Source: Nemertoderma westbladi (lineage: Eukaryota; Animalia; Xenacoelomorpha). Taken from it: 64,000 nt of DNA. The notes beneath the pieces are model-generated. The model did not search any database. It was not told the origin of the DNA and saw only the letters and a list, made by a program, of their open reading frames with translations. Positions 22,371 through 55,272 of this stretch are shown one piece after another. A program made the position numbers and the translations under genes. Position 1 is the stretch's first letter; each line of letters starts with the position of its first letter. Location: assembly GCA_032718475.1 (NCBI GenBank), contig JAUCBJ010006816.1, positions 1 to 64,000 of the forward strand, written 5' to 3'.

Positions 22371-22453
22371 CTAGTAGTGACTGGGCAGCATTAATAATAA
22401 TTGGTAATTTAATATAACTGGTACTTTTACTTTAAGCTTGATTTCCAAAACTG

Positions 22454-23722: not shown

Positions 23723-26700
23723 GAAAAACGAAAAAAAAGAAGAAAATGACTTCAAAGTTAGCAACCTCGACAAAGTCCATAGCAACGGCCCTTTCGATGG
23801 TTACTGCACGTTGCAATCGAAGTTTAGACCCACTACGAGTGTGCAACAATGTGCACATATTTCATTTAGAGTTTTTCATAGCAACACGTCAAATTTGCAT
23901 GGTAACGGGGTTCAAATCGGGCAACATTCAACCATCGCCTTCCATCATTGTCTACTATAAATACTAACTGTGTGCTGCACAGCAGCCGACTAAAAATAGT
24001 TGGCCGTTATTACTTGTAAAGCGGTGGTTATTATTAGGCCTATAACTACTGGCAATCAAATCTAAATACTGCTTAGCAAGATCTCTGCTATTTCTCGAGG
24101 TGTGACTGTCAGTCGTTCTGTCTTCTGTCAAAACATAGAAATTAAATAAATTGGAGATGAGCTGTTGCAACTGTAATTAATGATGAAATGTAAATGGTTT
24201 TGTTCAGAAGTGGAAAAAATTAGAACCGGGGGTTGAACCAGCGCTATACGTACGTTTCGGCCTACCAGGCCTCATCAGTAGCGCTAACCAGCTCAGCCAC
24301 TAATTAATATCATTAATTAGTGTAAATAATTTGATTGTGTAGTGTAGTGGCAGCAATACTCGAGCTGAATATTTATTTATTTATTTGTACTTCCCTCCTG
24401 TTTCACTCTAACATACTTGAGGCCGGTAGGTCCGCTGTTAGAGATAGAATATATACAACTTAAGACTGCCTGTTCGCGCTTTCAGACCTTTAGCAGTTTA
24501 ACCTGCCAAATTTAGGTGTCTTCTAGATTATAAATCGACTTTAGCCTATGACGAGTATTTGATACACTACATTAGCCGAAGCCAGTCTATGCGCGACCAT
24601 TCACCCGCTGGATATACCCGGGAGACTGGATTCGCAAGCTCTGACCTTATTGCGGTGTAGGCCTACTGTATTATTCGACTGATCGTTAATATATAATCTC
24701 TGACAAATATTATTCACTTTCGGGAAATATTAACAGTTCCTTTAGGACGTGGCGCTCTAAATATGTAAACAGAGTTATGACTTACACTAGACACAACGGG
24801 ATGGCTATTGATTCACGTATAAAGCGCATTCTTTAGGAGATGCTTTGTTATCTGTCACAATCATGCACACTACCGCACAATGCTGCACACCGATCTGCCG
24901 ACCTTCACTAATTTTAGTCACATATAAAGAGAACAGCAACCGACACATGTAGTGCCTATGAAATAGCATTAGATTCACTCCAAAACCAATATAATGTAAG
25001 TCGCAATTGCTATATGTAACCTGTCTCTTACCTTCAGTATATCAAGAAGATTGGGGGTTTTATGATTATTTATTGATATTATCCAAATATAATAATATTC
25101 CATCAACTGATATAATTAATAACCGACAGTAAATAGCAGTAAAAAGGCGGTGTTTGTAGGTGACAATATGTTTTGTAACAATATGAATTGCGTTGAGATA
25201 TGATTAGATAACAGTTATACGTTTCTATGATCAAGCCTACTAATGTTTGGCTAAAGCCTGAAACACAGAAATTCCAAAGCCGGTGTTCTGGCATCAGGAA
25301 AAATACACACACTGACTGAATTGCGTGAGTTTCTGTATACAATCTCCAACACAGAGTGAAAACCGCTCTGATTGGTCGACCGAACAAAGAACGAACAAAG
25401 AACAAAGAAAAAGTTACACGTGGACACAGCTGATAGATGTCGTCATCTGAGTTCCGATGTTTAGAGTATTTGGCTTATTTCGACATAAAATCGCTAGTTA
25501 TGTCCGCTAAAGTACACATACAGAAGAAATGGCTTTTTATGTCCACTAAAACACCGGTACAGTAAGGAAACGGCTTTTTATGTCCGTTAAAACAACTACA
25601 GAGTACTTTGCGGGGAAAATAACCAGCTAATTCCGCAAAAGCCTTTACACCGCTCCCAGAAAATGGGATTTAATTCTACAAAATATAAAAATCACAGTTT
25701 CTAAAATATAAAAATACTCTAAACAGTTAGTCTTTCTTACGCGGACGGCGTTTACGCAGTTTTTTGAGGCTAGCAAGAGTCCTTTTCTCTTTGGGGCGAG
25801 CCACTTTAATAGGAGGGCTATAACTCCTGGGTGAAGGGTGCAATACAATTGCATCGGAAGGTTTAGGATTACGGTCGGTGTATCCGCCGGTCGAGGTACC
25901 TGGTTGATCGATATCAACCTCAGTGGAACGAGGTCGAACAACCTTGAGAGCGCTTTTTAAGACAGCAGCTCTTACTGGTCCCTGACGGGTCGTTTGCACG
26001 AAAGCGGTAGGTGGACCGTGTGTAGTGAGAAATTTCCTCGGTTTGATGATTCTTTTCAACTCGCGTTCTCGGGCTCTATAGGAATCGATATGCTTCTCCT
26101 CGAGCTGATTTTCCTCCGCTTGTCGTTGAAAGCATTCGTCTAAAACTATTTTAGAAAGTAGGGTCACCCAAGTTCGATATCTTCTTAGATTCTGGATTTC
26201 CTGATCGAACTGAGATAAAGCTAATTCGTTTACCGCTTGGACTTGCTGCGGCAATTTACGTTTCTCTAAACAATTGTAGGTTCCTTTTCTGATCTTTTGA
26301 CGAATAGTGCCCAACGCGTTTCGTACAACTCTCTCCTCCACCTCGGTGACAGGTTGTATCGGGTTAAACAGGGACGATGATACGGTTGAATGACGATATT
26401 AGATGTCCGTGTCCCAATCCGGCTAGGTAAGATGGGCGAATATTTAGGGAGCCCACAACCGGAGTGCCACCGACTAACTGTTTGGGTAACACTAGATCTT
26501 TGAACAGTGAGTACAGTTCGGGAGGATCCGTGATACTATTAGGATCAAGAGTCTGAGGTCTAACTAGGGAATGAGGAGGTCTGACCGAGTATTCCGGAAC
26601 TCTGATCATAGGTTTATTTAAGGATCGTTTGAGTCGAGCGAGCGTCGGTGATACATCGAACAAGTTTCACTCGAAACTCCCGTAAATATAACGAGTAAAA

Positions 26701-29700
26701 CCGTGTTTAAAGCAACGTCTCCGCGGATGTTTATGTCTTTCCGTTTGTTGGTTGGGTCTTGGGCATTCATCGCAATAATACCAAAGACGCACGTCTTGTA
26801 GGAGAAACGCGGGTGATATTTATTCGGTGTTACAATGTTTCTCTCAAGAATTCCAAATATACGTTGGAGTTACCGCGTTTATCCGGTTCTTTAACGTCTT
26901 CTCTTTCGATTCGATTTCGAATAGAATTTTCGCATTCGATTTTCAGTTTATTGTTCCGACTCCGCTGGGTAGGATATTTAAATATTACCATTTCCCTTTC
27001 GGTGTCGACATAGTCCATATCGTGTAAATCGATAGGATGGCCAGTAGTTAAGAAGTCCATATGCGTACCATTACGATGCGTATAGCGAGCAGTGAATTTT
27101 CGATAGTCCAATTCACGCGTAAGTTGCTCCTGGGACATCGGCGGTTCGATATAACGACCATCGTCCTCCGTAGTAGTTGGACTAGCGTCGCTGCGTATCA
27201 ATCTATCAACAAATGCTTGCAACGGTAGATTATATTTCTCCCTGATACCAAGATCATCTTCTATCAACTCAGTCATAGCTGCTATATGAGTTTATCAATA
27301 TTATAATTAGTTATAATTAGGCTAGCGGGCGTCGCTGCCTACCCCTCTCGGCCCCTGGACAGCGCAAGATCCTCAGCTCCTAACAGGACCTAACAGACCT
27401 AACAGGTTGACACATTGTTACAGGGGGTGGTGGTATACCCTTATGTGTATTTACTAATTTATCGCGTTCTAACGCGATACTCTGCTGCACTTCTTGCAAC
27501 TCTAACCTACTTTCCCTTACTGTTCCTTTAAACTAATGAACAGTCTCCTGCATCTGCCCAAGCAGGAGATTCATCCCCCGCCGCCCCTCATTCACCCACT
27601 CGACCGCCGAAGCGGGAGCCGCCAACATAGTAGCGGGCAGACGAGGGACAACGGGCGACAAATCATTGATATTTCGCTCGGAGTCCAGGGCATGAACTGT
27701 CTCAGGGGTTGTTCTGTGGGGCACAGGTAGTTTAGTGCTGTGCAAAGGGAATTTAGAGGTAGGTTCTGGGAGTACAGGTGTCTCTATCACCGAAGGGGTG
27801 GCTTCGAGAACAGGCCTAATTATTTCAGGCTCATCTACTATAGTAGGGAGTCTTTCTATTTTAATTATTTGGTCTGTGGGTTCTGTACTACCTAAGTCTG
27901 TGTTAGTTAGTTGCCTTCTAACAGCTGGGGGCAAATCAGGCAATTTCTGACGGTGGGACATTCTTCTACGTCTGCTTAGACGAGATCTATTTCCTCCGCC
28001 TTCAGGATCGGTGGTATCGCCTTCATCAGATGATGTATATCCCTGTCTTTTGGGAGTAGATCGATTCATCATCTGCATATGACTAGCTGTTAACTGTTTA
28101 TTTATGCAGTCTTGATTCTCTTGAATATTTTCCAACTCTAGTTGGGTGGTCTCTTCAGATGCTCTTCGTTCTGCTTCTACCACTGCTCGCTTTCTTTCCG
28201 CTTCTGCCGCTTTTCTTTCCGCTTCTGCCGCTGCCGCTTTTCTTTCCGCTTCTACTGCTGCAGCTGCCGCTTTTGCCTCTGCCGCTGCCTCTGCCGCTTT
28301 TCTTTCCACTTCTGCCACTTTTCTTTCTGCTTCTGCCGCTGCCACTGCCGCTGCTGCTGTCTTTCTGTCTTCTATACGTTTTTTTCTTGACTTGTTCTTC
28401 TTGGACCCTAGCGATGCGGAGTCTTTCATCAAATTTAGCTTGGTTCGCAGCTATCATTTCCGCATCGATTGCGTCCAACACAAGCTTGGTTCCTTCACTA
28501 TTAGGGCAAAGTCCAGACAGCCGTCTCCTCAACTCTTCGTCACCTAGAAATCGTTGATAGTCTGACAGATAGATGTCAATAGCATCCCTCTTATGCGGTT
28601 TTTCTGCTGTCACTTCACTTTCCACTTGGGAAAAGGTAGCGTCTGTTGATTCTCCATGGGTTGAGCGCTCAGCCAGCTGAGATTTCCACTGGGCAGTTCC
28701 TTGAATTTGGAGACTCACCCGCTGAAACCAAGTCTTTACGGCAACTTGCAACGACGTGTCTTGTCTTCTTTTCGAAGCCTCCTCAAAGGCCGATAAGATT
28801 AGTCTGATTCTTAGAATTCTTTCTCTAACTTGATAAAGCAGCTCTCCCTGCTCTTGAGGTCCTTGGGGTTGTCGAAACAGTTGTTCCTCTAATCGCTCCA
28901 TAGAGCTGAAGAATCCCTGTACGTATCCTGCTGCTGACCTCTTCCACACAGCTGGATCGCTGGTTTCTTTTGTCACTCCCATCCTGTGTATGTCTTCCGA
29001 GGCAGCTTCCGATAAGTCAAACAGGATTCCGGGTCCAGGGAAGTTCCATTGCGACTCGACAATAGACTTCAGTTCTTCCCTTGTGTATCCCGCATAACTA
29101 TCCTTGGTCGATCGCTTACTTCTCGCCCAATCAATCTGGTGTTCCTCCACCGCAATCAATACCCTAGTGAGTACGGCTGCAGGAAGGATGAGAAGGGGAT
29201 CCGAATAAACCGCATCTGCCATCTTTGCTCCGTGCTCGGGTGTTAGCTCTACAGTATCCGCACTACTGGAGCTGTCGGGCCGCTGAGAAATAAGTTCTCG
29301 GCTCGAGTGTTGCTGCTGTTCTGCTGCTTCTTGGTCCCACTTGACCTGAGCTCGAGTGCCTATGATAGACCTACGGTGTTGGACTAGCCTAGGGTCTGAT
29401 ACTACTACTGGAGGGATGATCTTTATTACAGTAGGAGGCGAATTGAACTTCGGTCTCACACGTTCCACACTCCTGTCTGGGTCACAGATGGTTGTATCTA
29501 GGAGACTGTCTGACAGGTTTTGCTTTGTGTCAGACATGTTTGTTGGTACAGTTGAATGCCTACTGCTATATTACAGTTAAAGCAAGTCAAGTAATTCAGT
29601 ATCACCGTTAGCCTAGTAATTAATTACCGATATCGTTACTCTATGTAACGTGATATATATACAATATATTAGAATACCGGTATACACTTATAGTATATAT

Positions 29701-32700
29701 ATAAGTATTATTACAGACTAGGTTTGTCACAGAATACCGGTATATAATTTCAGCGCAAATATATAAATATATAATAAGCCTATCGTGAATACCGGTATAC
29801 AGCTTACACTTATAGTATATATAAGTATAATTACAGACTAGAATTAATTACAGAATACCGGTATATAATTTCAGCGCAAATATATAAATATATAATAAGC
29901 CTATCGTGAATACCGGTATATCAATTATTTTAGAATAATTGAATTTCTGAATTTTAGGGGTTACTTGGTTACTTTACTTTACCTTATTACCGTTATTTAA
30001 GCAGTAGTCCAACTGATATTAAGACCTAATTGTTGTATGACAGGCCTACTATTTTATAAATCGGTTTGAGTTGATTTATAATATATATATACCCGTTTAA
30101 TGGGTTTTGTCAATATTTGAAATAAATGTTATTATTTCTGGGAAGGAGTCACTGCACAGAAGCTGTACGCTCTCAGTGAAGTGCTACTTGTTGGACACTA
30201 AAACAAATAATTCTAATTTGCCTAAGTTACTTAATACTACAAATTACGTACAATTCGGGGTGAGATTACAATCTCTAAATAAACACAAAAATTACACGTA
30301 CGAATTTTTAGGGTAATTTTACAAGAAGTCTACAAACCAGCCTAACAAAGGGTTAGAATATCTGGTTATTACAAACAGACAGGATTCTACGGTATTTGAA
30401 AATAACAAAGCAGTAGTAAATATACTGCGTTGTCCAGATAGGAAAAATACCACCGTCTGACGACTTATAGCCGTATCGCTATAAGTACTACATTATGTAT
30501 CACGGAGTGTTCCTACCTAGAAGTTAATTACCGCGGCCTACCAGAGCCAACGTGCCTATTAACCACTTTACAACACAAATATACTGCCTACACACTAATT
30601 TCCTTCGGAAAGCACTGTACACTAAACCCTAAATTAGGTACAAGCACTTATACAACAAATAACCAGCAGTTAGAAATACTTGTACAGCTAAAGGAACCAC
30701 GGTATCTGCCGGAGTGACTGGAGCATAAAATCACCAGTCTTTACCTACGCCAAACAGCCCTGATGTAGTACCGGGGTTAATTTAACTATAACGGTATGTA
30801 TAACAAGCACAATTACTGTAGGAATAAACTTGGGGGTATGAATGTTGCGCATAATCGCATAAACTCTGAATAATAAATATTACGCTACACGTACAGACTA
30901 CTCAAACAAAATACAGACCAAACGCTGGCAGACTACTATCAAGCCCAAACAAACTACAGTATATGCAGACTCCGAAATGGTTAGTTAGTATGCGTTCTAA
31001 CCGAGTAGTACGACTTATTCTTTCAGGGGGATTTACCTTACAGCACTGGATGCCACCCACTTTCCTAACTAGTACTTTATCGGACATACACTCTACACAC
31101 ACCGCAATCTCTTCAGACCTAACAACAGCCAGGCAACAATCCAGCCTACAAATTATCTAAATAAGAAATATTACGCTACCCGTACAGAATACACAAACAA
31201 AATACAGACCAAACGCTGGCAGACTACTATCAAGCCTAAACAAACTACAGTATATGCAGACTCCGAAATGGTTAGTTAGTATGCGTTCTAACCGAGTAGT
31301 ACGACTTATTCTTTCGGGGGGATTTACCTCACAGCACTGGAAGCCCCTACGTTCCTAACTAGTACTTTATCGGACATACACTCTACATACACTGCAATCT
31401 CTTCAGACTTAACAACAGTCAGACAACAGTCCAGCCTACAAATTATCTGTACAATCTGAGCAGGCTTACACGTCTTCTGCTCAATATTAACCTACAAATA
31501 AATAAAACTGACAGAAATAAGTAAACCATACAAAGGAATAAGGGGTGATCAATCCCTAATCCCCTAACAGCCTACAATATATCACAATCGAAATAATACT
31601 GGTACCTGTACTGCAGTAAGTACCGGTTCGGGTGGTTAGGTAGTCAGGCCTACTGGTTACCGGTTGACCAGTACTTCAGCTTTATTGCCTACATTGCAAT
31701 ACAGAAGCAATAACTGTTATTGTTCGCGCTTTCAGACCTTTAGCAGTTTAACCTGCCAAATTTAGGTGTCTTCTAGATTATAAATCGACTTTAGCCTATG
31801 ACGAGTATTTGATACACTACATTAGCCGAAGCCAGTCTATGCGCGACCATTCACCCGCTGGATATACTCGGGAGACTGGATTCGGAAGCTCTGACCTTAT
31901 TGCGGTGTAGGCCTACTGTATTATTCGACTGATCGTTAATATGTAATCTCTGACAAATATTATTCACTTTCGGGAAATATTAACAGTTCCTTTAGGACGT
32001 GGCGCTCTAAATAATGTAAACAGAGTTATGACTTACACTAGACACAACGGGATGGCTATTGATTCACGTATAAAGCGCATTCTTTAGGAGATGCTTTGTT
32101 ATCTGTCACAATCATGCACACTACCGCACAATGCTGCACACCGATCTGCCGACCTTCACTAATTTTAGTCACATATAAAGAGAACAGCAACCGACACATG
32201 TAGTGCCTATGAAATAGCCTTAGATTCACTCCAAAACCAATATAATGTAAGTCGCAATTGCTATATGTAACCTGTCTCTTACCTTCAGTATATCAAGAAG
32301 ATTGGGGGTTTTATGATTATTTATCGATATTATCCAAATATAATAATATTCCATCAACTGATATAATTAATAACCGACAGTAAATAGCAGTAAAAATGCG
32401 GTGTTTGTAGGTGACAATATGTTTTGTAACAATATGAATTGCGTTGAGATATGATTAGATAACAGTTATACGTTTCTATGATCAAGCCTACTAATGTTTG
32501 GCTAAAGCCTGAAACACAGAAATTCCAAAGCCGGTGTTCTGGCATCAGGAAAAATACACACACTGACTGAATTGCGTGAGTTTCTGTATACAATCTCCAA
32601 CTATACAATCTCTACAGCTCTGATTGGTCGACCGAACAAAGAACGAACAAAGAACAAAGAAAAAGTTACACGTGGACACAGCTGATAGATGTCGTCATCT

Positions 32701-35700
32701 GAGTTCCGATGTTTAGAGTATTTGGCTTATTGCGACATAAAATCGCTAGTTATGTCCGCTAAAGTACACATACAGAAGAAATGGCTTTTTATGTCCACTA
32801 AAACACCGGTACAGTAAGGAAACGGCTTTTTATGTCCGTTAAAACAACTACAGAGTACTTTGCGGGGAAAATAACCAGCTAATTCCGCAAAAGCCTTTAC
32901 ACTGCCCGTTCAATAGAAGTGGATTAGGTGGGAGTGTGAGTGTCAGGGGCTAGTGGCTGAACTGGTTAGCGCTACTGATGAGGCCTGTTAGGCCGAAACG
33001 TACGCATAGCGCTGGTTCAACCGCCGGTGACGCGCTTTATCATTTTCTCCACTTCTGAACAAAAAACCATTTACATTAAAACATAAAAAACACATTAGCT
33101 GCAACAATTCCTACAGGCTGGAGTTTCTCTATTAGTCCTTTCATTTCCGACGTAAGTTTTCAAATTCGGCTGCATTTTTCTGGTTAACGAAGTTGAGGTT
33201 TTAGCTGAAGGCGGAACAGTGCCGACTTGAGGACAAAGTTAAAATAAGAAATTAAACTCACCTAAATCGACCCCTTCGAGACTTGAACCCTCTATAAGAC
33301 CTGAGAGGTCTACATGGGCCTCGTCGTCTTCCCCAGCATCGCTGCCTGCAGGTCTAAGACCCCGACCGGAGATCTTTAGATTAGTCTGCGATGTCGGTGG
33401 GTACAGATCGTTGGGACCGAGTCCAGTGGCACCTCCAAACTCCTCTATATCCCTTCCGCTCCCAGACACGCCTAGAGGAGCTCCTGTATAAATAATTAAA
33501 AAAATAAAAAGTTAAAAAAAATAAATTACTTTTTGTTAATTTTAAGATTTCTAATGTTGCATATCATTTGAAAGAACATAATATTTGAAATTGTTATCAT
33601 TAAAGAAAGGTCGTTTAAAGGAGACAGTAAAGTAAATTTCAAAATAGGCCTACTTGCTGCACTAGGATAAATTGTATTGGTGCAAGTCCTCAAAATAATT
33701 TACTTCAAATAAACAAGAAAGTCAATAAAGTTTATTTACCTAACTCATCTCCTTCTTGTATCGAGTCGCCTTGAACAGGTGTTTTACCTCTAATTGCAGG
33801 TAAAGGAGGCGGTCGTTTATAAGGTGTACCTAAATGATATAAGTAAAATAGTTTAAACCCACCGATCGGTATAAACCCACCGATCAACCCGCCAATAAAC
33901 ATACAATAACACAGTTTTGCATTATATCAATGTACGGCGTTGTTTAAGGAATGACAATGGCTGAGAACCCCGATTCCTCTGGCTAGCAGGTTACCATAGA
34001 ACAACATCATTCAAGGGCTGATCAGTTCTACGTTGCCGTAGTTTCTGAAGGGTGATACTGGGTTTTAGAATTGTGTGTACTCGAAGAGGTTCACTGTACC
34101 ATTGTCTATTTGTCTATGAGCAATTGTACTGTACGTATTCCATGATCCCCCTTTGTAGCATTCTGGGTATTAATCATCAATGGATCATTTCTGGTGACTC
34201 GAGTAATAATAATAGTATAACGTCTATTAATAAGCAGGGTGACGTCTGCAGTAAAGGTCCAGCAGGGGCCTTCGGGGAAGGTGGGTTCGTGTGACTTCCC
34301 ACAATAGAATAACAGCGTAACTCGACTATGTAGTATAAACACGTTCGTGTGGCCTTCGTGCAGCACGAGACTCAGTCAACCTGAGAAGCTGTAATCCAAG
34401 TACTTTGTTTGTATTTACAATACGACGCTATGAAACTTCTGAATCTTTTTAAACCTTTGACCGGCATGTTTACCAGGTTTGGTTTAATTTCATCAGTGAT
34501 TGACCGACTTATTTCGGTTTTTATCAAAAGTCTGAAACTACCGGTACCTACTGACACACTGTTTTTACCAATCTTCAGATTCTTTCTAAAATTTTGACGG
34601 ATTATATACTTTGTTTCTTTGATTACCTATTTGATCTAATACAAGACCAAAGTATGTACAAAGTCTAATTTCATCAAGGAATTCCCGAATTATTAGCGAT
34701 TAAAAATTGGACAACAACAGACAACTCGTTCATGGTACCCCTACGCCAAGGCTTCGCTAACTTCGTGGCTCGCCCCCCATCTAACCTGGTCTTTAAATAT
34801 GAGTTAATAGTGCATATCAGTTTGACTACAGTACCAATATCTCACCTGGTCTATCGGTATCTCACCTGGTTTATCGGTATCTCACCTGGTCTAACGGTAT
34901 CTCACCTGGTCTATCGGTATCTCACCTGGTCTATCGGTATCTCACCTGGTTTATCGGTATCTCACCTGGTCTATCGGTATCTCACCTGGTCTATCGGTAT
35001 CTCACCTGGTCTATCGGTATCTCACCTGGTCTATCGGTATCTCACCTGGTCTATCGGTATCTCACCTGGTCTATCGGTATCTCACCTGGTCTATCGGTAT
35101 CTCACCTGGTCTATCGGTATCTCACCTGGTCTATCGGTATCTCACCTGGTTTATCGGTATCTCACCTGGTCTATCGGTATCTCACCTGGTCTATCGGTAT
35201 CTCACCTGGTCTATCGGTATCTCACCTGGTCTATCGGTATCTCACCTGGTCTATCGGTATCTCACCTGGTCTATCGGTATCTCACCTGGTCTATCGGTAT
35301 CTCACCTGGTCTATCGGTATCTCACCTGGTCTATCGGTATCTCACCTGGTTTATCGGTATCTCACCTGGTCTATCGGTATCTCACCTGGTTTATCGGTAT
35401 CTCACCTGGTCTATCGGTATCTCACCTGGTCTATCGGTATCTCACCTGGTCTATCGGTATCTCACCTGGTTTATCGGTATCTCACCTGGTCTATCGGTAT
35501 ATCACCTGGTCTATCGGTATCTCACCTGGTCTATCGGTATCTCACCTGGTCTATCGGTATCTCACCTGGTCTATCGGTATCTCACCTGGTCTATCGGTAT
35601 CTCACCTGGTCTATCTGTAATAAACAGTTCCTCGTCAATGAGTGTAGCAACATCGTAGAATATCTCATCTTCGTCTCTATCACCCTCGATTCTACGCACT

Positions 35701-41756: not shown

Positions 41757-43041
41757 TTTGCTTGTCAAGAATCCTACCTTTCACGTACAAAATTCTTCCT
41801 AGAGAATCGTAAAGTTTATTGTGGTTGATTCGCGTTTAATTAATGTTGCTTAATAGACCCCAAAATCAGAAAATAATTTGCAAATTTGTTACTTATTCAA
41901 TCGCACTCAGAATAAAAAATCTAAATTTACCTACTGGTAGCGTAGCGCGTAACAGTAGTAGCAGTCCAGTCAGTACTGAAGTAGGCCTACTGCTCTCATA
42001 GATTACAGTATCATATTTATTTGTAGCCTACATGGACGCCTATATTAATTAGCTGACTCCCAGCTGCCAGCAGACACTCTGATATACAGTCATCAGGATC
42101 ACCGCAGCCATTGCCGTAACGGCAAATAATAAGCTAAGTATTATTTGTAGGAAGGCCAGGACACCTACGGTAGGTCGTAGGCTTATAAACACACTGACAG
42201 TCCCGAATCTAACTTATAAGTTATTGTTTACAGTGTAGCTAGGCAACACATATGAGTGGGAATTTGAAATCATATTGTTAAGTATTCTCATTAAAGTACA
42301 ATAGCAAACAAAGCAAAATTGAAATGCTTTTAAGAGTATTATTATCTGACGGGTTGTTAATTGTTGAAAAAGTTATTTAGTTGCTGAAAGCGTGAAGAAA
42401 ATAACAATTAATTGAAGGCAATGGTCGCTCTGTTATCCTAGAAATTACTTTACTCACGCCGTTGCCGCGGGCCAGCCAGCATAGGGGATACTTTTTGGTA
42501 ACCATCTGGAACTTTTATTTTTGGGTAGACCTATGTTTTGGCCATTCATTTTGAAATGATAACAAATCTGAATCAGTAGCTGACTTGGTGTTATCAGCGG
42601 TTGTCATGGAAATGGCAAAATAACAAACATGCTGTAGTAGTCTAAGAACTCAATATAAATTCTTCGCATCTTCTGAAAAAGATAGCTTACAAAAGAGTCT
42701 TACAATTCTAAATGTGTCATAAAATTCTGGAGTATAATTATTGTTGCCATGGGAGCGCTGCTAAATTAAAACTGACATGTTTTAGAAAATTGGCTACCAT
42801 TCTAGAACAATATCATTATTTTAAAAACAAATTGTTAAATATTAGTTTTGGAAAACTTTGGTATACTGAGAGCGAAACTTTTTTGTTATAACGGTTATAT
42901 ATATGGTACAAAAGTTATACCCATGTCTGAAATATTTTTCTTTATCAATATTTTAATCTCATTCCACTCTGTTCCAAAATTATGACAAAATATTTAGGTC
43001 AATGAAAAGCAATCAATCATAATATAACTACAGTACAATGC

Positions 43042-44230
43042 TGTTTGCGCTTTTGAAGACCTTTGACAGTTTAACCTGCCAAAATTAGAATGTCTTTTGG
43101 ATGATAGATAGTCTTTAGCCTATGACGAGTATTTGGTACACTACATTAGCCGAAGCCAGTCTATGCGCAATCATTCACCCGTTGGATATACCCGGGAGAC
43201 TGAGTTCGGAGCTTAATGATTGATGGTGTAAGCCTACTGTATAATTCGACTGATCGTAATATATAATCTCTGACAAATATTATTCACTTTCGGGAAATAT
43301 TAACAGTTCCTTTAGGACGTGGCGTTCTAAATATGTAAACAGAGTTATGACTTAAACTAGTCACAACGAAAAGGCTATAGATTAACGTATATGGCGCATT
43401 CTTTAGGAGATGCTTTGTTATCAGTTACAATCATACACAATGCTGCACAATACTGCACACTAATCTGCCGACCTTCACTAAGTTTGGTCATGTATAAAGA
43501 GAGCAACAGACAATTTATGTTGGGCATATGAAATAGCATTAGATTCACTTCAAACCACTCAACATATGTCGCAATTGTTTATCTGTAACCGGTCTCTCTA
43601 ACCTTTAGTATATCAAGAAGGTGGGGTGTCTGACTATTGATCAGTATTCCGATATAATATTTCATCAACAAATATAATGAACAACAGACAGCAAAAGCAG
43701 TAAAGTTAATAAGATATAATTAAGTTTGTTGAGTAAGTAAGTAGTTCGTTTGTGTAAATCGTTTGTAGCTCGTTTGATAACAGATATACGTCCTATAATT
43801 AAGCCTACTAATGTAAGACTAAAGACTGAAAACACGGAGGTGCCAAAAGCCGATGTTCTTAGGCTCTGGGCAAAAACATAACACTGAACTACTGAGTTCT
43901 GTATACACCTCCAACACAGAGACAAAAAACGCTCTGATTGGTCAACCGAACAACGAGAGAACAAAGAAACAAAGAAACGTCGACGTGGCAATATCAGCTG
44001 TTAGCCGTCGTCATGGTAGCGACACTGTTTTCAAGAGTATCCAGCTTATCGCGTCACGAGATTGCAGATTATGTCCTCTAAAGTACAAATACAGTACAAA
44101 TACAGAAGAAATGACTTTTATGTCCTCTAAAACACCAGTACAGCAAGGACACGGCCTTTTTATGCCTGGCAAACCAACTACAGAGTACTTTAAGGGAAAA
44201 TAACCGGTTAATGACGCAAAAGCTTTTACA
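43042..44230 (-). repeat. 3' LTR (diverged relative of the 24.5-kb and 31.7-kb LTRs)
   Basis: Colinear similarity over its whole length; TGTTTGCGC...TTTTACA termini. Confidence 0.9.
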
Positions 44231-44308
44231 CCGCTCCCAGAAAATGGGATTTAAGTCTATAAAATATAACAAATCACAGTTTCTAAAATATAAAAATACT
44301 CTAAACAG

Positions 44309-47300
44309 TTAGTCTTTCTTACGCGGACGGCGTTTACGGAGTTTTTTGAGGCTAGTAAGAGTCCTTTTCTCTTTGGGGCGAGCCACTTTACTAGGAGGGC
44401 TGTAACTCCTGGGTGAAGGGTGCAATACAATTGCATCAGAAGGTTTCGGATTGCGATCGGTGTATCCGCCGGTCGAGGTACCTGGTTGATCGATATCAAC
44501 TTCCGTGGAGCGAGGTCTAACAGCCTTTAGGGCGCGCCTCAGGACAGCAGCTCCTACGGGTCCTTGACGGGTTGTCTGGGCTATGGCGGTAGGCGGACCG
44601 TGGGTGGTAAGAAACTTCCTTGGTTTAATAGTTCTTTCCAGCTCGCGTTCTCGGGCTCGATATTCGTAGGGCCGTCGAGATACTTCCTGTAACTCAGGGT
44701 GCGAGTTGATAAATAAATCGCCATACTCAGGGTCTTGACGGATATAATTGATCAAATGGTATGAAGTAATATCGTTAGGATTGACATTCCTAAGGTATCT
44801 TCTAACAAATTTAGTGGAAATACACTCACCAACACGCTTCATTAGCTCGTAACTCGGTACGCGTGTTTTTTGTTCCACAGACGCTAATAAATAAGGATGG
44901 AACGCGTAAACTCCCTCGTAAGAGCGTCCAGGGTAGTATCGATGACAGGACTCACAATGTAAATCCGCGTTCGCTTCCCAAGCTCGAATGTAGCGCAGGG
45001 TAATCATTTCGTCTACACTCTCTAAATCGTGATTAAAGGGGCAATTATAACTGGCATGTCCTTTAAGTTGACAGTGGTGGCATTGAGTCATAAATTGGGG
45101 GCAGACTGCAAAAATATGAGAGTTATTAAGTCTGCAATACGCACAATATATCTCCATCATTGGTTGATCGTGGAAATAGGAACAGGGTACGTCTGAGTCC
45201 ATAGGGGTGAAATGGTCTCTCGATGCGCATAATCGACAACGTTTTCGAGAAACATAGTTAGCGTGTCGATAATCGTATGCGGTGAGACATTGTGGACCTT
45301 GATACCACTCTAAGACGTAGTCGTTATCGCTGCTCCGGGGCGCCGTAGGCTGAATCGCTTCAGCTTCTAAGCATATTGGCTCATCTTCCAATTGCATAGC
45401 TGAGGTAGGTGCGGCTGTCTCCGCAAGCGGACCCACTGTCTGAACTTCGACGACAGAATAACCCGTGGGTATTCGGGGTCTTTGTATAACAGATGAGTGC
45501 AAGTTCTGTATACAAACGTCCTGAAAAAGGGCAAATCCCGCGCTGTTTAGTTTCTCCGCTGCTGAGTCTCTCAGGCTGAGTTTGGTCAGAGCGCGGTCCT
45601 TGAACTGACTATCAACGTTACGGAACGGAGTCAGAAAGCGCCTGAAACATTCAAAGCGGATGAATTTATTGTGTTCATCTAACTTGGCGAGTTTGGTTCC
45701 AAGTATTAAGGGATGGGCGCGTATGGTACGACTGCACACATCGGCTAGCCAACCGGCAAGTGCTGCGTTTTCAAAGATCGTGTATATAGCTAAGGAGGGA
45801 CGAAGTGGAACACTCATAAAGCTATACACGGCGCCAGGTGCGGTCAATGGTCCATCAAAGTATAAACGAGAATAATGATCTCCGTACACTTGTTGGTAAT
45901 TTATAGGATTTCCAACCTTGAAATTCCATCCGTATTCTTGAAAGGCAAGATGTCCGATGGAGGTTCGTTGTACTTTGGTAATTCCGCTGGGTGTATTGGC
46001 ATATGTAGTGCGGAAGAAACCTCGGCCTTCTGCCCAAGGAGCAATCAGCTGAGTATCAACGAAGGGGTATGGAATGTTCTCCATATTCCGAAAGTCGTTC
46101 TGTAGGTCTCCATAAACAGCTGAGCCGATTTTAAGGATTCCTTCGTTAAACAGCATCTCGAGCACGGGTTGGGGTAACATCGATCCATCGATACCCATGG
46201 CCGGCTTGCGCTCGGTGTCGGTGACGTAACGCTGCGCGAGTTCAAATTGTCCATGTCGGAGTTTCTTTTGTATCTCAGTAAGAGTTTCAAAAGAATAATC
46301 AATAACGTCGGAACACGCTCGAGTAAATACGTGGGTAGAACCAGCGAGTCCTCGTATGTGTATCATCCGCGTAGTTCCAAGTTCTCCAACCGGAACGCTA
46401 CCTTCGTTATCGTAAGTGACAACTCCATACATCTCGATAACGTTAAGAGTTTCGTTCCACTCTTTAGTGGCGTTTTCGAGTGTCATTCCCACAGGATGCC
46501 ACAAGGTAGCACATTCGCTAGCATTAGGCAGGTCTTTATACTTTAAACATTGTGTGGTATATGTTTCCACATCTCCATATTGTTGTATTCTTTCCTCCTC
46601 GAATAACACATCAAGATTCCAGTGCACTAAACGAGTTTTGATGAATCCATCAAGATTATACGGAGGTATTGTTTCTTTCTCTATTCTGGAAACATTATAT
46701 GGTTTTCGAAACGAGTTCACTTTAACTAACTGATCGAGATGTTTCTGCAGTTGTTCGAGTTCGACAAGATCGAGAGGATTTATTAACGGTAGAAACTTCA
46801 GACTATGTGTAGGATCTTCCAGTTTTACCATGTAATATTGTTTTAGATTGACGTAATAAGGGTGATCTTTGATCCCATAAAACGAGTCCGGTAAAGGTCT
46901 AGCGCGTATGTTTACATCGTGTACCATGCGACGGACAAGATCCGCTCTATTGTCCGGAGGTTCAACGAGTATACCATCGACACGAGCGGGTTCGATGGGC
47001 GGACGCTGCAACAGAGGAGCGTCGGCGATAAGATCGCGAGATCTTAGATTGATATCAACCGGTTGGGGTTGTGCCGTCGCAAAAAGTTTGTCTCCGAAAT
47101 GGGGAACCATCGAGGGATGAAGAATGGTTTTAGAGTAGAGATCCGTCATAAGGATTTGCGCTTCTGGTTGAGCTAAAGCCGCTTCTTCTCTCTCATCCAG
47201 TTCTATATGTCTCTCCTCGAGCTGATTCTCCTCCGCTTGTTGTTGTAGACGCTCACCTAGAAACTCTTGCAAAGAGTAGGTTCGTCCACGTTCGATGTCC

Positions 47301-48092
47301 TCCTCGCTTGAAACTGTTTCGCTCGAAACTTCCGTAAGTATATCGTGTAAAACTGTGTTTAGCGCAACGTCTCCGCGGATGTTTATGTCTTTCCGTTTGC
47401 TGGTTGGGTCTAGGGCATTCGTCACAGTAATACCAAAGACGCATGTCCTGCAGAGGAAACGCGGGTGATCGTTCTCCAGTTTTACAATATTCCTCCATCT
47501 GTTCGAAGCTATCTGGGACAACAGGTAGCGGTCGATCGGCGGTAAGATACATCATAGTGAAATAGAGTCGTTTGAGTTCTATCATAGGATCATGATGTAT
47601 ACCTTGAGGATATCGAGTTTCGAGATTTTGTTGACTGGCAATATTGAGGTATGTTTCTCTCAAGAATTCCAGATAATCGTTGAAGTCGTTGCGTTTATCC
47701 GGTTCTTCAACGTCTTCTCTTTCGAGTCGGTTTCGAATAGAGTTCTCGTGTTCTATTCTTGGCTTATCGTTCCGATTCCGTTGGGTATGGTATTTAAATA
47801 AAACCATTTCCCTTTCGGTATCCACATCGTCCGTATCGTGTAAATCGATAGGGTGGCCAGTGGTTAAGAAGTCCATATACGTACCATTACGATGCGTATA
47901 GCGAGCGGTGAACTTTCTATAGTCCAATTCACGCGTAAGTTGCTCCGGGGACATCGGCGGTTCGATATAACGACCATCATCCTCCGTAGTAGTTGGACCA
48001 GCGTCGCCGCGTATCAAGCTATCGACAAACGCTTGTAAAGGTAGAGTATATCGCTCTCTGATGCCAAGATCATCTTCTATCAACTCAGTCAT
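44309..48092 (-). CDS. Extra retrotransposon ORF: N-terminal Cys/His motif, DEDDy (WRN/EXD2/MUT-7-like) 3'-5' exonuclease-like domain, Zn knuckles, basic C-terminal NLS; split by a single-base frameshift near 47270
   Basis: ExoI VVTYDNEG (~46400-46420), ExoII LPQPVLEMLFNEGILKIGSAVYGD, FVDTQ, SIGHLA, ExoIII-like PLRPSLAIYTIFENA. Knuckles CRLCASRDH, CAYCRLNNSHIFAVC and CHHCQLKGHASYNC. Tail KKLRKRRPRKKD. Confidence 0.75.
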
Positions 48093-49733
48093 ATCTGCTA
48101 TGAGTTTATCAATATTATAATGAGTCTATATAGATTAGGCTAGCGGGCGTCGCTGCCTACCCCTCTTTTGCCCCCGGACAGTGTAAGATCCTCAGCGCCG
48201 ATGTACCGTCGTCGCTGTGCTTTCGCCAACGATGTAGCTACACAACGACAACGATAACCGGCACAAGTCACTTAACTGTCCGTCCCAAAGGCTTAGATGT
48301 ACTGCAGGTTCTTCTTGGAGAGTTAGGGTTACTTTCACAATTGCGACTCGCTACTGTAAACACACCTTAGTAGTAACATTCACCTACAAACGCACAAATT
48401 CAACACAACTGCAACAAACTGCACACATTCGGGCCATTTGTCCGTTAGTCAGTACCTTCCAGAATGTCACTGTATTTATTATGTATCCTTGGATACTAGC
48501 AGTGCGCTATTTATTCCCTATGCTATTCAATGGGGCATGCTTTCTATTGTTCTTTTAACTCACTTCTAATTCTAGCGTGGTAGTTGCCATGGTGACATTA
48601 TGGAAAGCTAGCGGTAGAATTAGGGTAATTCTCATGCATACAGATCTGGGATGCTATTTAATAGTAATTCTTTAATGGTCAATATCCCCTTTATACATGA
48701 TTCTATGAATTTTATCGGCTATTGACTATGCATTGGAGATTCTCGCACACAAATACACTTAATAAAGTGAATCTCCGCTCCCATGATCTATTAATTAATG
48801 GAATTTTGGGAATGTTATAAATTGTACAAAATGACAATTTATTAAATTCATTTAAAGTATGAATTTAAATTTATTCCCGTGAATTTTATTATTTGATGTT
48901 AAATAGACACAATTTTATTCCAGAACGTGTCTGGGGACTGGGATCCTTGATTCTAGGAATTTTGTCCTTTTAAGAATATCGGTAAGTGCTACGATATCTT
49001 AATCGACTAGAATTTTAAAGGATCTGATATTTGACAGATTTTTGCAAATATTAATAATTAATATTTAGGATGGGCACCAGTTTATTCCAGAACTTGTCTG
49101 GGGACGTTAACCATTGATTCTAGAAATTTGTCTTTCAAGTATATCGGTGGGTGCCGCGATATCTTAATCGACTAGAATTACAGATGGTCAAAGGGTTTAA
49201 CAGATTTATTTTGCATTATACGCTACTGTTAAAGGGACATCACGCTACTATATGTATTATTTAATATACGGTATGAGAGCAATATCGCACGAAGCAATGT
49301 CAGTGTGAAGAGGCAAGTCGTTTCCAAGGTCTACCCAGAGCTTGGCTTAGCCGAGACACGAGGATCTGAACTTTGCATTCCTAATACTCTGCCTACCAAT
49401 AATACTTAAATATAGTAGTGGCTTTATTGTACTTTAATAAGTACGGACATTTCATCTTACTGTAGTCGCGTATTTATAATATAATACGGGCAGTAAGGAA
49501 AGAGAAAAAGAATTATTTCTCGCCGTCGCACTAAATATATAATATACGTAATTAAATAATAAACGCGAATATATATTGCACTAATCTACTAAATAATCTC
49601 TAAAATACCATACTACTAAATAAAATTAAATAAAACGATTAAAATAAAATTACATAATAATACATACATAAATATAAAAATAAAACAAATACAAATATAA
49701 AATAATATGGTCACACACCCACTCCAGCCGTTT

Positions 49734-52700
49734 TTAAGTTGGGGAGTCCCTAGATGTTTGTTGGATTAGGGAGGTGGTCGTGGGAAGAGTATCTTGTCTC
49801 CCATAGTTTCCGGAGAGTTCTCTGTCTCTTTCCAGTAAACATAAACGACCCACCGGGCGATTGAGCTGCTGCGTCTCGAAGACGATTCCCGGTTTCTTGA
49901 AGTTACGTCGCATGACGACGAGTTCTACCGATCGCACCAAACCGTCCTCCGAGATATGCGTCTCGATTATACGACCTGTCTGCCACCGCTTACGGGGAAG
50001 ATCCACATCCACAATAAGCACCATGTCTCCAGCGCTAACGTTTTCTTGCTGCGCAAACCACTTAGTTCGAAGTTGTAGCGTGGGCAGATAATGTTTTTCG
50101 AAATGGTCAGCGAAACGACGGGATAACAACTGCATGAGTTGCCAAGTTTGTCGGCAGTATTCGTCTCCGTCTGTGATTTCCGATTGTGGGAGCATGGCTA
50201 CAGGTTTCTTCAGTAGGAAGTGCGTGGGTGTTAGCGCTTCCAGGGAATCGGGACTCGATGAGACTGGCATAAGCGGTCTCTCGTTGAGATAGGCGGTGAT
50301 TTCTTCCATTAACGTCCGCAAAAGTTCGTCGGTGAGATAAGCGCGGCAAGGCACTATAAAATGAAATGCTGTCTTCACGCTTCTTATTAATCTCTCCCAA
50401 CTTCCTCCCCACCAAGGGGCGTCGGCGGCGTTGAAGGTCCAACTAGATGCTGTTACTCGTAGTTGGTCGTCCACCTGTCTTTGGTTCCAGTCTTTGACGT
50501 AAGCTTTGATTTCATTGTTGGCACCAATGAAGTTTGTTCCCTTATCAGATCTCATCGTGTTACTAGTGCCAAAGCGAGCGATCTGTCGTCGTAAGCTTAA
50601 TAGAAAGCTGTTGGTAGATAAATCGTTCACCATATCGAGATGGATGGCTCTACAAGTCATACAAACAAAGATTACACACCATCTCTTGACTATAGTCCTA
50701 GCACGATATACTTCAATAGGGCCAAATAAATCCACACCGGTATTAGTGAAGGGTGGTTCATAAAAACCTTACTCGTTCCCTAGGTAATTCTGCCTCTCGC
50801 TGTGTTAAAGGCCTACTGAATGCTTTCCTACAGGGTATACAGTTCCTAAGAACTTGGTTCAGAGCTCTACGGGGTTTATAAAAATAATAGCGAGTTCGAA
50901 TTTCGCTAAGAACTCGTTCTCTACCAGCATGATAAAGTTTGCTGTGAACATCTACAATCATCTTGACTTGTATTTCAAGATTTCTAATGAGTATGGGGAA
51001 CTTAGTATCAAAGGATAATGGTGCATTCGTTAACCTTCCTCCAACACGTATCAACCCATCTATCATTGTGCTAGAGAAACGATCCCTTAAGCGCATCTGT
51101 GGATTTCTCAACAACAGGAAATACTTATCGGAATCTTCATAGCATTGTAAGAGTCTCAGCATCTGTTTGTTGGTTTCTTCATGCTACTGATAACTGATCT
51201 TCTCCTTCAGAAACTTGTCGGGTACCTTATATTTAGGGAGGTCTTTAATAACATGGACCTGCACTGATGTGATTGGAGCGGTATCACCATTTGTTTTCAT
51301 CCCAGAGTAGTGATGGTGAAAACATCTCTTTAAATATGTAACGGCCTTACAAAGCCGATTCCAAGAACTGTAGTGATGTATCGCTCTCTGCAGAAGGGGT
51401 GAGAGTCCTTGCGAGACGTCTGGTATGCCAGATTTCCAATCCTTATCACGGATTTCCACAACGAGTTTATTTGTGGCTGTGGGTTTCTGATCCAAAGCTT
51501 CGTCTCCGGAAGTATGTAATACAGACAGATCTACTGTGGGTTTGAATAACTTCGATTTACTCGCCTGAGTTTTAGGTTTGACTTTCTCCGCTCCCTTGGC
51601 CTGTCTAATTTCTGCTGTAGTAAGATGAGGAGGCCATTCTTCTTCTTCTTTGTAGAGGAAGTCGGGTCCACCTAACCAGTCTGGAGTATCTACCAGTTCT
51701 TGTGGAGTTGCTCCCCTGGAAGCGATGTCTGCTGGATTAATCGTTCCGGGGCAATGTCTCCATTGATCCATCGTCGTGCGACTGAGTATAATAGCTACTC
51801 TGTTGGTAACGAAGACGCTGAACTGACAGACTTCATTGGTTATATACTCCAACACGAGTAAAGCGTCGGTCCAATAGACAGTTTTCTCCAGGGTATAGTC
51901 GATCTGTTCTGTTACATTCCGGCCGATGGCTGTAGCGTATAGAGCCGCTTTTAACTCCGCTCGAGGAACTTTCAACTTGTTGTTTATTAATGCATTAGAG
52001 GTAACCAAGGCGACTTTAATTCCGTCCGGAGTTTCTACCCTTAGGTAGGCTACTATACCGATTCCCATATCGCTGGCGTCTCCAAACACATGGAGTTGAT
52101 ATGAATACGTAGGGAGAACATGACCAAAATATGAACGGGAAATTATGAAGTTTTCGATGGCTGGTAGAGAATCTTCCCATTTCATCCACTTCTTTAATAA
52201 TTCTCCCTTAAGTGGATCGTCCCATGAGTGGTTTTCAAGCCACATTTGTTGTACTAAACTCCGAGCAATTAATATAACTGGGCTAATAAATCCCAATGGA
52301 TCGAAATAAGTGCTCAGGATACTTAAACATATCCGTTTAGTCCGAACTGGATTATCTCGCTGTTTTAGTTGGAAAAACAGGATATCTCTTTCTGTGTCCC
52401 ATTTCAAACCAAGGGTCTTAGTTTCTGGGAGATCATCCTTTATTAGATCTAGGTCTTTTGTTCCTCGATCTTCTACCGGGATCGACTCCAGAAACTCACG
52501 GGAGTTGCTGGTGAATTTAGTTAATCGAAATCCACCTTTCTTTAAGCATTCTACCGTTCCCTTTGCGACCTCAATGGCTTCTTCGACTGATGGAAGGGAC
52601 TTCAGATTATCGTCCATGTAGATGTCTCGTTTAATATTGTCGATCACTTCTTTAGAGAAGGCGTCTCGGTTGTCATCTGCAGTGGTGCGTACCACGGAAC

Positions 52701-54596
52701 AGGCGTTTGAAGGGCTCGAGATTATCCCAAAAGCTTGGATGGTCATCCAGTACTCCACCGGTTTCTTATTGAGGTCTCCTTCAGGCCACCACAAAAATCG
52801 TAGACTATCTCGATCCCTATCCAGCGCTTTGACTTGTAAGAACATGCCTTCTATATCTGAGGCGAAAGCAATGGAGTATTGTCTTAACCTTAATAATATT
52901 CCCAACAAGGATTGGAGTAAGTTGGGTCCGGGTAACAATTCAGAATTAAGGGATTGGCCCATATAGAGGGCGGAACCGTCAAACACCACTCGTACTTCAT
53001 GGGGTTTACCGGGTTTGGGAACGTAATGGTGAGTTAAGTAATACGTTCTCTCAGTTATAGGAGTTTCTTCCGGTACTAGCTCCGCATATCCCTTGCTAAT
53101 AAACTTCTTCAACTGCGTTTTATACATTTCTTTAGCTGAAGAATTTGCCGTAAGGCGTCGATGTAGTTGAGCAATTCTTTTCTCTGCCAAAGGTCTGTTG
53201 TTAATGAACTTTGGTTCTCGCTTTCGGAAAGGAAGACCGATCTCATATCTACCTTGATCTTTAAGAAAACGAGTAGTTGTCGCTTGGATCTGCTTGGCTC
53301 TTTCTTCCTCCACCGATAGGGCCTTATCGTAGGAGTTGGGCTCTACGACCTCTTGAGTAAAGAATCTCACGGCATGTTCATCCCGAGTCTTGGCATTATA
53401 ACGTTCAATGACGTCATTAAGCTCGTCGTTATAGTCGTCTCGCTCAGATGGGTGAAGGAGTTGACATAAGTTCACTTGATTTTGCCAAGTCTCGCTTTCC
53501 TTAAGGAGATCGATGGCATTCTCCTCATCAAAGAGTTGATGTATATCGTCGTTGTCTGAGGAGTATGGAGTTCCCTCAGTTGGATCGTCGAACTCACTGT
53601 TCTCAACTTCCCATTCTCGTGCTTGATATACTTGGTCTTTCGGTAATCTTTCCATTAGAGTTCTACGGGAAGGGCCAGTAAAGTACCAACCTACTCTAGT
53701 TCTTCCCGCATAAACTTGTAGAGGTTGCGGTTGAGCAGGTCGTTTCTCTAATGTCTCGAGCGCTTCATGCGCATTTTGACCGATGAGTATTTGCACTCCA
53801 GGATAATCTGTCTGGAATCGAGGTATCTTAAGATGTTGGATGCTCTTATCCTCGTCCCAATTATAAAGGTCTGCTTGAGTAGTAGCGAAGTTCTTTATAG
53901 CCACCATTTTCACTGACCTTATGCTATGTTCTCCTAGTTCGTCCTGTGGGGTGGACAATGCACCTACATAATAATCCGCGGTTACTGTGGATTTCCAAAC
54001 TTGCATAATTCCTGACATGTTTAGCTTAGTTCGGAACTTGGGTTGTCCATCAAATATGTCTTCGGCTAGCTCTTTATCGATGAATGTTCCTGTACTACCG
54101 GAGTCGAGGAGGACGTTCACTACATAACTCCTTTTCGGTTCGTGGACCCTTACCTGTACCACAGGAAATTCTCTAATCCCTACATTGGAAGTTGGCGCTT
54201 TCCAAAATGGTTGTCGATCAGAAGTGGTTAGAGCGAGGTCAATGTCTGTATCTTTTTCATAGATGAGTGCTCGATACACTGTGGTATTTATCATGTAACA
54301 GGATTCGTTTTCGTCGGAGAACTCGTCCGTATAGAATCCTTCCATCTCAGATTGATCAGTGTCGTTCACATCACTGAATTGGACATGTAGTTCGGAATCA
54401 CTTACCTGACTCGGACTATTTCGCTCGAATTCAGTGTGCAACAAGATATGATGTTTCGCACCGCACTTGGCACATCTTGTGTCAGAGTAACAGGTTCGCC
54501 GTTGGTGTCCTTGTCTGAGGCAATTATAGCACAACCGCTTGTCCCACATGACTTCACGTCTCTCCGTTAATGATTTCTTTAGAAATTCATCACACA
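49734..54596 (-). CDS. BEL/Pao gag(C-terminal)-pol: Zn knuckles, protease, RT, RNase H, integrase (one in-frame stop at 51184, one frameshift near 50765)
   Basis: CYNCLRQGHQRRTC..CAKCGAKHHILLH, LLDSGS, YMDD, HVFGDAS, H..HAG..C..C, GVDLFGP, RSDKGTNF, WERLI. Confidence 0.95.
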
Positions 54597-55165
54597 TGTT
54601 AGCTTATTCAATCCCGCTAACACCCCATAAAGTTATAAGCCGATAAGCAATATTGGGAGCCACGAGATTGGGCAATTAACCAACTCGTGCCATCCCAATA
54701 AGAGTGGGAAGGAAGCACACAATAGAGGGTCAGGGGCCAAACCCCTAACCCAGAGAGAACAGGTGGAGTGAACGGGAACACTCCACGGGGCGCCAACAAG
54801 GGTAACAACCAATCAGAGGGGGGGCAAGGCATCGATTGAGTAGCAATAAGGCCACCGTGCAATATAACCAATAACCTATTAATCAGTGATTCAGTTATCT
54901 CAGTGCAGCAGTGCTAGCGTAGGTTGGTATTGTACTTTAGTTTAGTTAGGGGATCACGGGACTTTAGTTACCGTATCCCGCCTTGTACACATTATATCTA
55001 TATCTATATCCTATGCCCTATTATTATTATACACCGAACTTCAGAACTCAGTTACTTTATTTCATCCTTATACACGGCGGGGACGCGTGGACTAAATTAC
55101 CACACCGGATAAATCGGGATCCCTCCTGGATCCCGTCACAGTAACTAAACCCGGTGCCCTGAACA
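54597..55165 (+). repeat. Putative 5' LTR of the nested element (right end uncertain: 55140, 55165 or 55226)
   Basis: TGTT start; CCAATCAGAG, TATAA and TCAGT promoter-like motifs; candidate ends ...GAACA. The partner LTR is outside the window. Confidence 0.5.
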
Positions 55166-55272
55166 GTAACTAAAACCCAAACCACCTACTAGTAACTAAA
55201 TCCGAGGAAGAAGCCCCAGTTGAACATCAAAAACTGCAGCCTAGCTAGCCGAACCATCAGCCACCAGACGAG

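Follow-up and report, generated by a model that had tools for sequence, protein, structure and literature searches.

The BEL/Pao element and its third gene

In the 64,000-nucleotide stretch considered here (hereafter the window, i.e., positions 1 to 64,000 of the forward strand of contig JAUCBJ010006816.1, assembly GCA_032718475.1, from the xenacoelomorph Nemertoderma westbladi), a long terminal repeat (LTR) retrotransposon carries a third gene whose product combines Cys/His clusters of the zinc-knuckle type with a domain very likely descended from DnaQ-like 3'-5' exonucleases. This element, designated copy A, lies on the minus strand, occupies 11.6 kb inside the window and presents, in the sense direction, (i) the end of gag followed by pol (49734..54603, with the pol stop at 49734, as delimited from Pfam matches and the layout of open reading frames), (ii) an AT-rich spacer of 1641 nt (48093..49733), (iii) the third open reading frame, hereafter ORF3 (ATG at 48092, stop at 44309), (iv) a polypurine tract of 8 nt (44231..44238), and (v) a 3' LTR (43042..44230). 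The place that a preliminary description of this locus had assigned to the gene, on the sense strand between pol and the polypurine tract plus 3' LTR, is thus confirmed.

By its domain content, the host element of ORF3 is a BEL/Pao retrotransposon. The pol product exhibits, in order, Asp_protease_2 (weak), RVT_1 (weak), Peptidase_A17 (expectation value, E, 3.8e-35), Integrase_H2C2 (E 3.4e-8) and DUF5641 (E 1.5e-20), which fits the Pao-type succession of protease, reverse transcriptase, RNase H and integrase. The 3' LTR, of about 1190 bp and bounded by TG and CA, is 84% identical (952 of 1138 aligned positions) to the LTR pair of a second, pol-less copy in the window, designated copy B. Together with the 5-bp target duplication of copy B, these LTRs agree with what characterises the Belpaoviridae, namely TG..CA-bounded LTRs measuring 0.2-1.2 kb and a short duplication of the target, while the purine tract of about 10 nt expected there before the 3' LTR is represented by the same purine-rich 8-mer adjoining the 3' LTR in both copies. 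The pol of copy A is broken by a premature stop (51184-51186) and a frameshift (near 50760-50770).

A second BEL/Pao element, on the plus strand (about 54598-63738), interrupts copy A where gag ends; it holds an unbroken gag-pol frame of 1796 residues (58348-63738, 33% identity to the pol of copy A) preceded by long low-complexity frames, and within the window no 3' LTR was detected for it. Among the contigs from sequencing runs, loose ends fall at 54595, near this 5' break of copy A.

A single gene of about 1260 residues had been proposed at first, which does not hold: the interval 48092-44309 measures 3784 nt, is indivisible by three and is distributed over two overlapping frames (48125-47253, 290 residues, and 47551-44309, 1080 residues), with a frameshift at approximately 47260..47290, where the frame best matching copy B changes. 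The N-terminal part (47290..48092) is an orphan with no Pfam match and contains the fourth Cys/His cluster of the gene (47426-47357), which is kept in copy B. The downstream part (44309..47260) is an open frame, from which a putative start at an internal ATG (47149) could still yield 946 residues including the nuclease domain. Roughly 95 residues at the start of the 1080-residue frame were considered as genuine protein and rejected, the other frame being the conserved one there. Near 47310, copy B carries about 480 nt against about 14 nt in copy A, on account of which intact members of the family may be nearer 1400 residues, as an estimate. Because its pol is broken and its ORF3 is split over two frames, copy A is, as far as its reading frames tell, a dead or partly dead copy; ORF3 is also broken in copy B, by a deletion. 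Just 5' of the ORF3 ATG, a candidate splice acceptor (48093..48145), composed of a branch-like CTAAT followed by TAGCAG and kept in both copies, is consistent with a subgenomic message made by splicing, as is usual for ORF3 expression (PMC5408684).

A third gene located between pol and the 3' LTR recalls the env-bearing BEL/Pao elements, and only env-like third genes are listed for the Belpaoviridae (PMC8742986). That ORF3 specifies an unusual envelope protein, for which this position and a message probably spliced as for env could be invoked, is nonetheless a reading that deserves almost no credence: no membrane segment was found, the maximal hydropathy over 19 residues being 0.46 in the N-terminal frame and 1.19 in the downstream frame (at the ExoIII helix), the N-terminus is hydrophilic and without signal peptide, and the protein ends in a basic tail after nuclease and knuckle motifs. 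As no hydrophobic segment exceeds the latter value, ORF3 is considered not to be env, in line with the preliminary description, which had remarked on the lack of signal peptide and membrane anchor. Compared with env-bearing elements, ORF3 is no membrane glycoprotein and copy A exceeds the size range of 4.2-10 kb given for the Belpaoviridae (PMC8742986).

Exonuclease-like domain, zinc knuckles and a distant homologue

The DnaQ/RNase D-like domain covers residues 350-612 (45716..46504, minus strand; residue numbers refer to the 1080-residue frame) and its frame is unbroken in the window. The exonuclease motifs were located in this frame at the places first reported for them, including the Glu of ExoIII, namely YDNEG at 380-384 (46414), LPQPVLEMLFNEGILKIG at 459-476, VYGD at 479-482, DTQ at 499, SIGHLA at 531 and PL-x6-Y-x3-E at 582-594, with D381, E383, D482, Y590 and E594 as candidate catalytic residues. 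An ordered five-motif scan, whose spacing windows were set after the sequence was seen, finishes on E594 and was equalled by 1 of 500 shuffles; taken singly, the motifs ranked 3, 1, 1, 19 and 4 of about 1060, with the ExoI D-x-E at 3 of 1063 and the ExoII Asp at 1 of 1056. Since ExoIII reads Y590-x3-E594 where a strict DEDDy exonuclease would have Y-x3-D, the domain is viewed as DEDDy-derived and not as a strict member.

The likeness to RNase D/Rrp6 and to WRN, EXD2 and Nibbler (MUT-7) consists of the ExoI D-x-E, the ExoII Asp, the DTQ and the PL-x6-Y spacing, all in order. Differences from this group are the ExoIII Glu, two insertions of about 30 residues within the domain, the fusion to knuckles and an identity of 13-24% to bacterial members; moreover, RNase D has K-F-L-H, with a His before the ExoII Asp, where ORF3 has K-I-G-S, without the His. 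For the HRDC domain, no Pfam match was obtained at E up to 1, a level at which a remote HRDC could escape. Out of 18,950 NCBIfam models, only two gave a match, both of them for RNase D and both far short of the cut-off (E 0.014-0.05). The second of two PHROG matches was an exonuclease family aligned over the ExoI region (E 0.13), and E. coli RNase D aligned by BLASTP (pairwise E 0.002) over D482 and the DTQ. Prompted by the RNase D match in NCBIfam, four profiles were made from 70 bacterial PF01612 domains: with the 25-sequence RNase D profile, the ORF3 frame came first of the 69 window frames (E 4.4e-5, the next at 1.2) and scored above 2000 of 2000 shuffles, and the pooled PF01612 profile was likewise clear, with the frame first and above all 2000 shuffles. 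In searches of PDB sequences, the single domain returned no nuclease and a two-sequence profile placed RNase D third of 4, with an insignificant E of 2.1.

When 1.84 billion representative proteins were searched in full with HMMER, a single match appeared, P0001 (648 residues, E 1.5e-6), which is a singleton from an ENA assembly, located on a 9449-bp contig. Identity is 30% in the domain and 26-30% between the two proteins. P0001 retains D-x-E, the ExoII Asp, DTQ and PL-x6-Y-x3-E-N, has in common with ORF3 the ExoII block, the DTQ, a G-H/N-F-K block and the PL-x6-Y-x3-E-N (pairwise E 3e-13), and by itself matches Pfam DNA_pol_A_exo1 weakly (E 0.2). As in ORF3, its exonuclease with an ExoIII Y-x3-E-N precedes three knuckles; it differs by being about half the length, by lacking the long N-terminal part and by not being known to sit on a retrotransposon. 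The two-sequence MAFFT alignment misplaced ExoI. With the bacterial set, MAFFT aligned the Glu of P0001 unaided with the ExoIII Asp. An alignment of 43 sequences shows D381, E383, K474, D482, K545, L583 and Y590 without variation and has E594 in the ExoIII Asp column. Of 40 alignment settings combining both proteins with bacterial sets, 36 brought D381 and E383 into register and 38 did so for D482; in 31, E594 stood opposite the Glu of P0001. Being common to two proteins of such low identity, the ExoIII Glu looks like a trait of the family. No ORF3 relative emerged from word-indexed protein searches (lengths of 594-1890, 182-580 and 30-181 residues), from metagenome contig scans (55 pattern matches for the domain and 182 for P0001, 0 confirmed in either case), from a viral contig scan with the two-sequence alignment (468 pattern matches, 0 confirmed) or from a scan of phage records.

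Following the exonuclease domain, a pattern search located three Cys/His clusters at residues 772-837 (45041..45238, minus strand), with the successive forms CX2CX4HX9C, CX2CX5HX4C and CX2CX4HX4C; the three knuckles originally announced are therefore present as clusters, of which only the last is a canonical CCHC. The region matches Pfam zf-CCHC_3 below the cut-off (E 0.0025), its second and third clusters align with P0001 (0 of 2000 shuffles as high), and the three knuckles of P0001 match the HIV-1 nucleocapsid (E 1e-4) and Air2 chains. These knuckles are predicted to bind RNA. At the C-terminus, a tail nearly identical in copy B (44309..44380 with the stop, minus strand) contains 45% Lys/Arg over its last 31 residues; this basic end, already recognised in the preliminary description, is likely a nuclear localisation signal.

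Selection and the pol-less copy

Copy B (24471..32901, minus strand) is bounded by two LTRs (1165 of 1181 positions identical) and a 5-bp target duplication. It holds both ends of ORF3, at 76-88% DNA identity to copy A, the exonuclease and the knuckles being deleted. ORF3 is thus found within the same LTR family in two independent insertions, which settles in the affirmative the question of its linkage in another copy; direct linkage of pol with ORF3 is seen in copy A only, as no listed contig piece spans from one to the other. To judge from its make-up, copy B transposed recently and without the nuclease, which would therefore be dispensable in cis and act in trans. Parts of the stretch are present in 5 of the 7 sequencing runs listed, and the BEL/Pao family is abundant in the host: contigs of four runs fill 30 of 30 bins from the LTR to pol, with 85,111 contigs in the best run, none of the contig pieces listed from these four runs covering the whole region. 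Other contig joints skip the nuclease region (44443-47201, 44462-47191 and 45337-47718), and deletion derivatives of the copy B kind seem to have originated on more than one occasion. The nuclease region has a lower contig depth than its flanks; depth was not equated with copy number and was given no weight.

At the gag position, copy B has two overlapping frames (471 and 305 residues, 27533-29570, minus strand) with no convincing Pfam match, which follow a leader of 2.1 kb containing a tandem duplication of 291 bp. Copy B is flanked by two inverted arms, each about 115 bp long, whose sequences agree at 87% (24187-24302 and 32951-33077), and may sit inside an element resembling a miniature inverted-repeat transposable element.

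ORF3 is under purifying selection. Considering the 40 best-supported of 171 variants of the nuclease region, taken from contigs, 32 are synonymous where the same spectrum of mutations would predict 11.6 (p 3.5e-11); D381, E383, D482, Y590 and E594 are left unchanged by all 40. In the flanking N- and C-terminal parts, the ratio of non-synonymous to synonymous substitution rates (dN/dS) between copies A and B, a measure suggested in the preliminary description, amounts to 0.21 (146 codons), 0.15 (54) and 0.09 (117), the first two values belonging to the N-terminal part (47290..48092 frame). Under such selection, ORF3 is held to be functional for the family and not a passenger. The converse view, i.e., motifs that look alike by chance or a decayed passenger host gene without a role in the element, can draw on weak E-values in the libraries, on an unguided structure model that yielded no usable fold and on the broken state of both window copies. 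It is largely refuted and very improbable, considering, besides the strength of selection across copies, the ordered motifs common to a distant homologue, the shuffle tests and the location between LTRs in an independent insertion.

Candidate functions and neighbouring features

As the third gene of a BEL/Pao family, ORF3 would encode a 3'-5' exoribonuclease that depends on metal, descends from the RNase D/WRN group and is fused to zinc knuckles. It would be expressed from a spliced subgenomic RNA and its product imported into the nucleus, where the knuckles would guide the nuclease to RNA and the nuclease would act in trans, chewing back host silencing RNAs or their precursors. The steps differ in strength. 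The DnaQ-like ancestry is highly probable; catalytic activity with a Glu at ExoIII is probable, given the acidic residues retained; expression from a spliced subgenomic RNA with nuclear import is, on balance, likely. The weakest step is the substrate, for which silencing RNA, in preference to the RNA or complementary DNA (cDNA) of the element, is advanced only tentatively, activity being granted. A nuclear role against silencing is proposed because the tail is basic, because such a gene is absent from most BEL/Pao elements, which replicate all the same, and because related cellular exonucleases are active in small-RNA pathways. Taken as a whole, an active nuclear, trans-acting 3'-5' exoribonuclease with knuckles that degrades host silencing RNAs or their precursors is the reading we place first, at slightly short of even chances. 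Its cellular exonuclease relatives are described as functioning in small-RNA pathways in PMC5408684.

Several results weigh against this reading. With regard to ancestry, the window protein has no exonuclease match in Pfam and no library match reaches its curated cut-off; the profile taken as WRN-like was marginal, being equalled by 3 of 2000 shuffles, the fourth profile was negative (210 of 2000), and the significant profile match extends over 46 residues only, from ExoII to the DTQ. The nuclease call of the preliminary description is moderately supported, by weak library matches, a targeted profile test and one distant homologue. The pairing of ExoI with P0001 is in register and insignificant, 1552 of 2000 shuffles scoring as well, and only 17 of the 40 settings aligned the five catalytic positions together. 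An unguided single-sequence AlphaFold model reached a predicted local distance difference test score (pLDDT) of 33, and its fold search gave a best Z of 4.6 with no nuclease listed, so that, of the profile and structure checks initially envisaged, the former returned a weak match and the latter, unguided, no usable fold. A model guided by an in-register alignment with 41 bacterial exonucleases attained a pLDDT of 65 (80-92 over the motif blocks, low over the insertions) and superposed on RNase D with a Z of 15.2 and a root-mean-square deviation of 2.9 over 167 aligned residues, also matching WRN, Nibbler and Rrp6; as the alignment supplied the fold, this is circular and speaks of compatibility only. 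The variants used in the selection test were picked by support. Replacement of the ExoIII Asp by Glu reportedly may lower or abolish activity, as is said of the Klenow enzyme. Lastly, the DEDDy ORF3s of rotifers show no clear link to copy number (PMC5408684).

The ExoIII Glu, which stands in place of Asp in both known members, is also the starting point for regarding ORF3 as a pseudonuclease, i.e., an RNA-binding adaptor with an exonuclease fold similar to EXD1 or Egalitarian, which would bind element RNA or decoy factors of the PIWI-interacting RNA (piRNA) pathway without cutting. The insertions of some 30 residues point the same way, and there are precedents, EXD1 and Maelstrom being inactive DEDD derivatives in piRNA biogenesis (PMC5408684) and Egalitarian an RNA adaptor. 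This reading is unlikely. Against it, two proteins of only 26-30% identity have each retained an acidic residue at all four acidic positions and an aromatic one at the Tyr, which suggests that metal binding is kept.

Alternatively, an active nuclease could serve replication by trimming, at the 3' end, RNA, primer or cDNA that belongs to the element, an idea raised beside that of countering piRNA or small interfering RNA defence in the preliminary description; a specific form of this proposal supposes priming by self RNA, with the enzyme trimming the primer back to its paired end. The catalytic residues are retained in ORF3 and P0001, the knuckles resemble those of nucleocapsids, and 3'-end processing has been proposed for rotifer ORF3s and for the exonucleases of Dada transposons (PMC5408684, PMC3706591). 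In copy B, the 11 nt directly 3' of the 5' LTR (31720-31710, minus strand) pair exactly with its own LTR, about 433 nt from the LTR start, a possible self-priming signature, and no TGG-type site is evident after this LTR where Belpaoviridae have an 18-nt transfer RNA primer-binding site, the 5' end of copy A being outside the window. This 11-mer is however near-palindromic and seen in one copy only. According to the ICTV profile, replication proceeds without such a gene in most BEL/Pao elements and, with reverse transcription assumed to be cytoplasmic, the basic tail points elsewhere, to the nucleus. An aid to replication is a doubtful explanation, to be taken about as seriously as one chance in four would warrant.

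Exonuclease ORF3s are known from other elements. The DEDDy extra reading frames of bdelloid rotifer gypsy elements mentioned in the preliminary description are borne out: Juno, Vesta and the Terminons carry DEDDy ORF3s with the motif DEED (PMC5408684). The ORF3s of Juno, Vesta and the Athena Terminons resemble that of copy A in being RNase D-like, in following pol in the sense orientation, in lacking a membrane segment and in having one non-canonical acidic residue (PMC5408684). They differ in their gypsy-like host, BEL/Pao here, and in the motif DEED against D-E-D-E here, with the Glu at ExoIII; compared with them by description only, the present protein is further set apart by its size beyond 1200 residues, three knuckles, orphan N-terminus and basic tail. 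The Dada DNA transposons likewise bear a DEDDy exonuclease but, unlike ORF3, as a domain inside the DDE transposase and with the four canonical DEDD residues (PMC3706591); Dada and the rotifer case are taken up again in PMC6431247 and PMC5718144. Literature searches on the topic showed no BEL/Pao element with an exonuclease ORF3, Repbase and most subscription papers lying outside the search, and an exonuclease goes unmentioned in the cited portions of the main texts of PMC3118150 and PMC12440569.

With the present family, enzymatic ORF3s other than env, known from the gypsy elements of rotifers, are extended to BEL/Pao. The means by which animal retrotransposons withstand small-RNA silencing are an open question and, to our knowledge, element-encoded counter-defence enzymes are hardly documented. 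ORF3 offers a selected, high-copy candidate for counter-defence; its nuclease domain, unbroken in the window, lends itself to direct assay, and its conserved ExoIII Glu would probe the variation tolerated in a DEDD active site. Going further, ORF3 and its kin might form an unrecognised family of D-E-D-E triple-knuckle exoribonucleases suppressing silencing by piRNA or small interfering RNA, with BEL/Pao and gypsy elements having converged on nuclease-plus-knuckle third genes for counter-defence, a speculative and rather improbable prospect.

Elsewhere in the window, a likely host exon on the minus strand (41310-41780) shows weak Pfam matches, a Dpy-30-like motif and a P-loop, and we take it to be adenylate-kinase-like. 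Three fragments on the minus strand (39022-39660, 35963-36349 and 21648-22431) resemble, by eye, the ends of the second open reading frame of non-LTR retrotransposons, the one scanned giving no Pfam match. Tandem arrays are located at 34658-35700 (20 bp units), 20187-20915 (27 bp) and 5500-15500 (about 670 bp).

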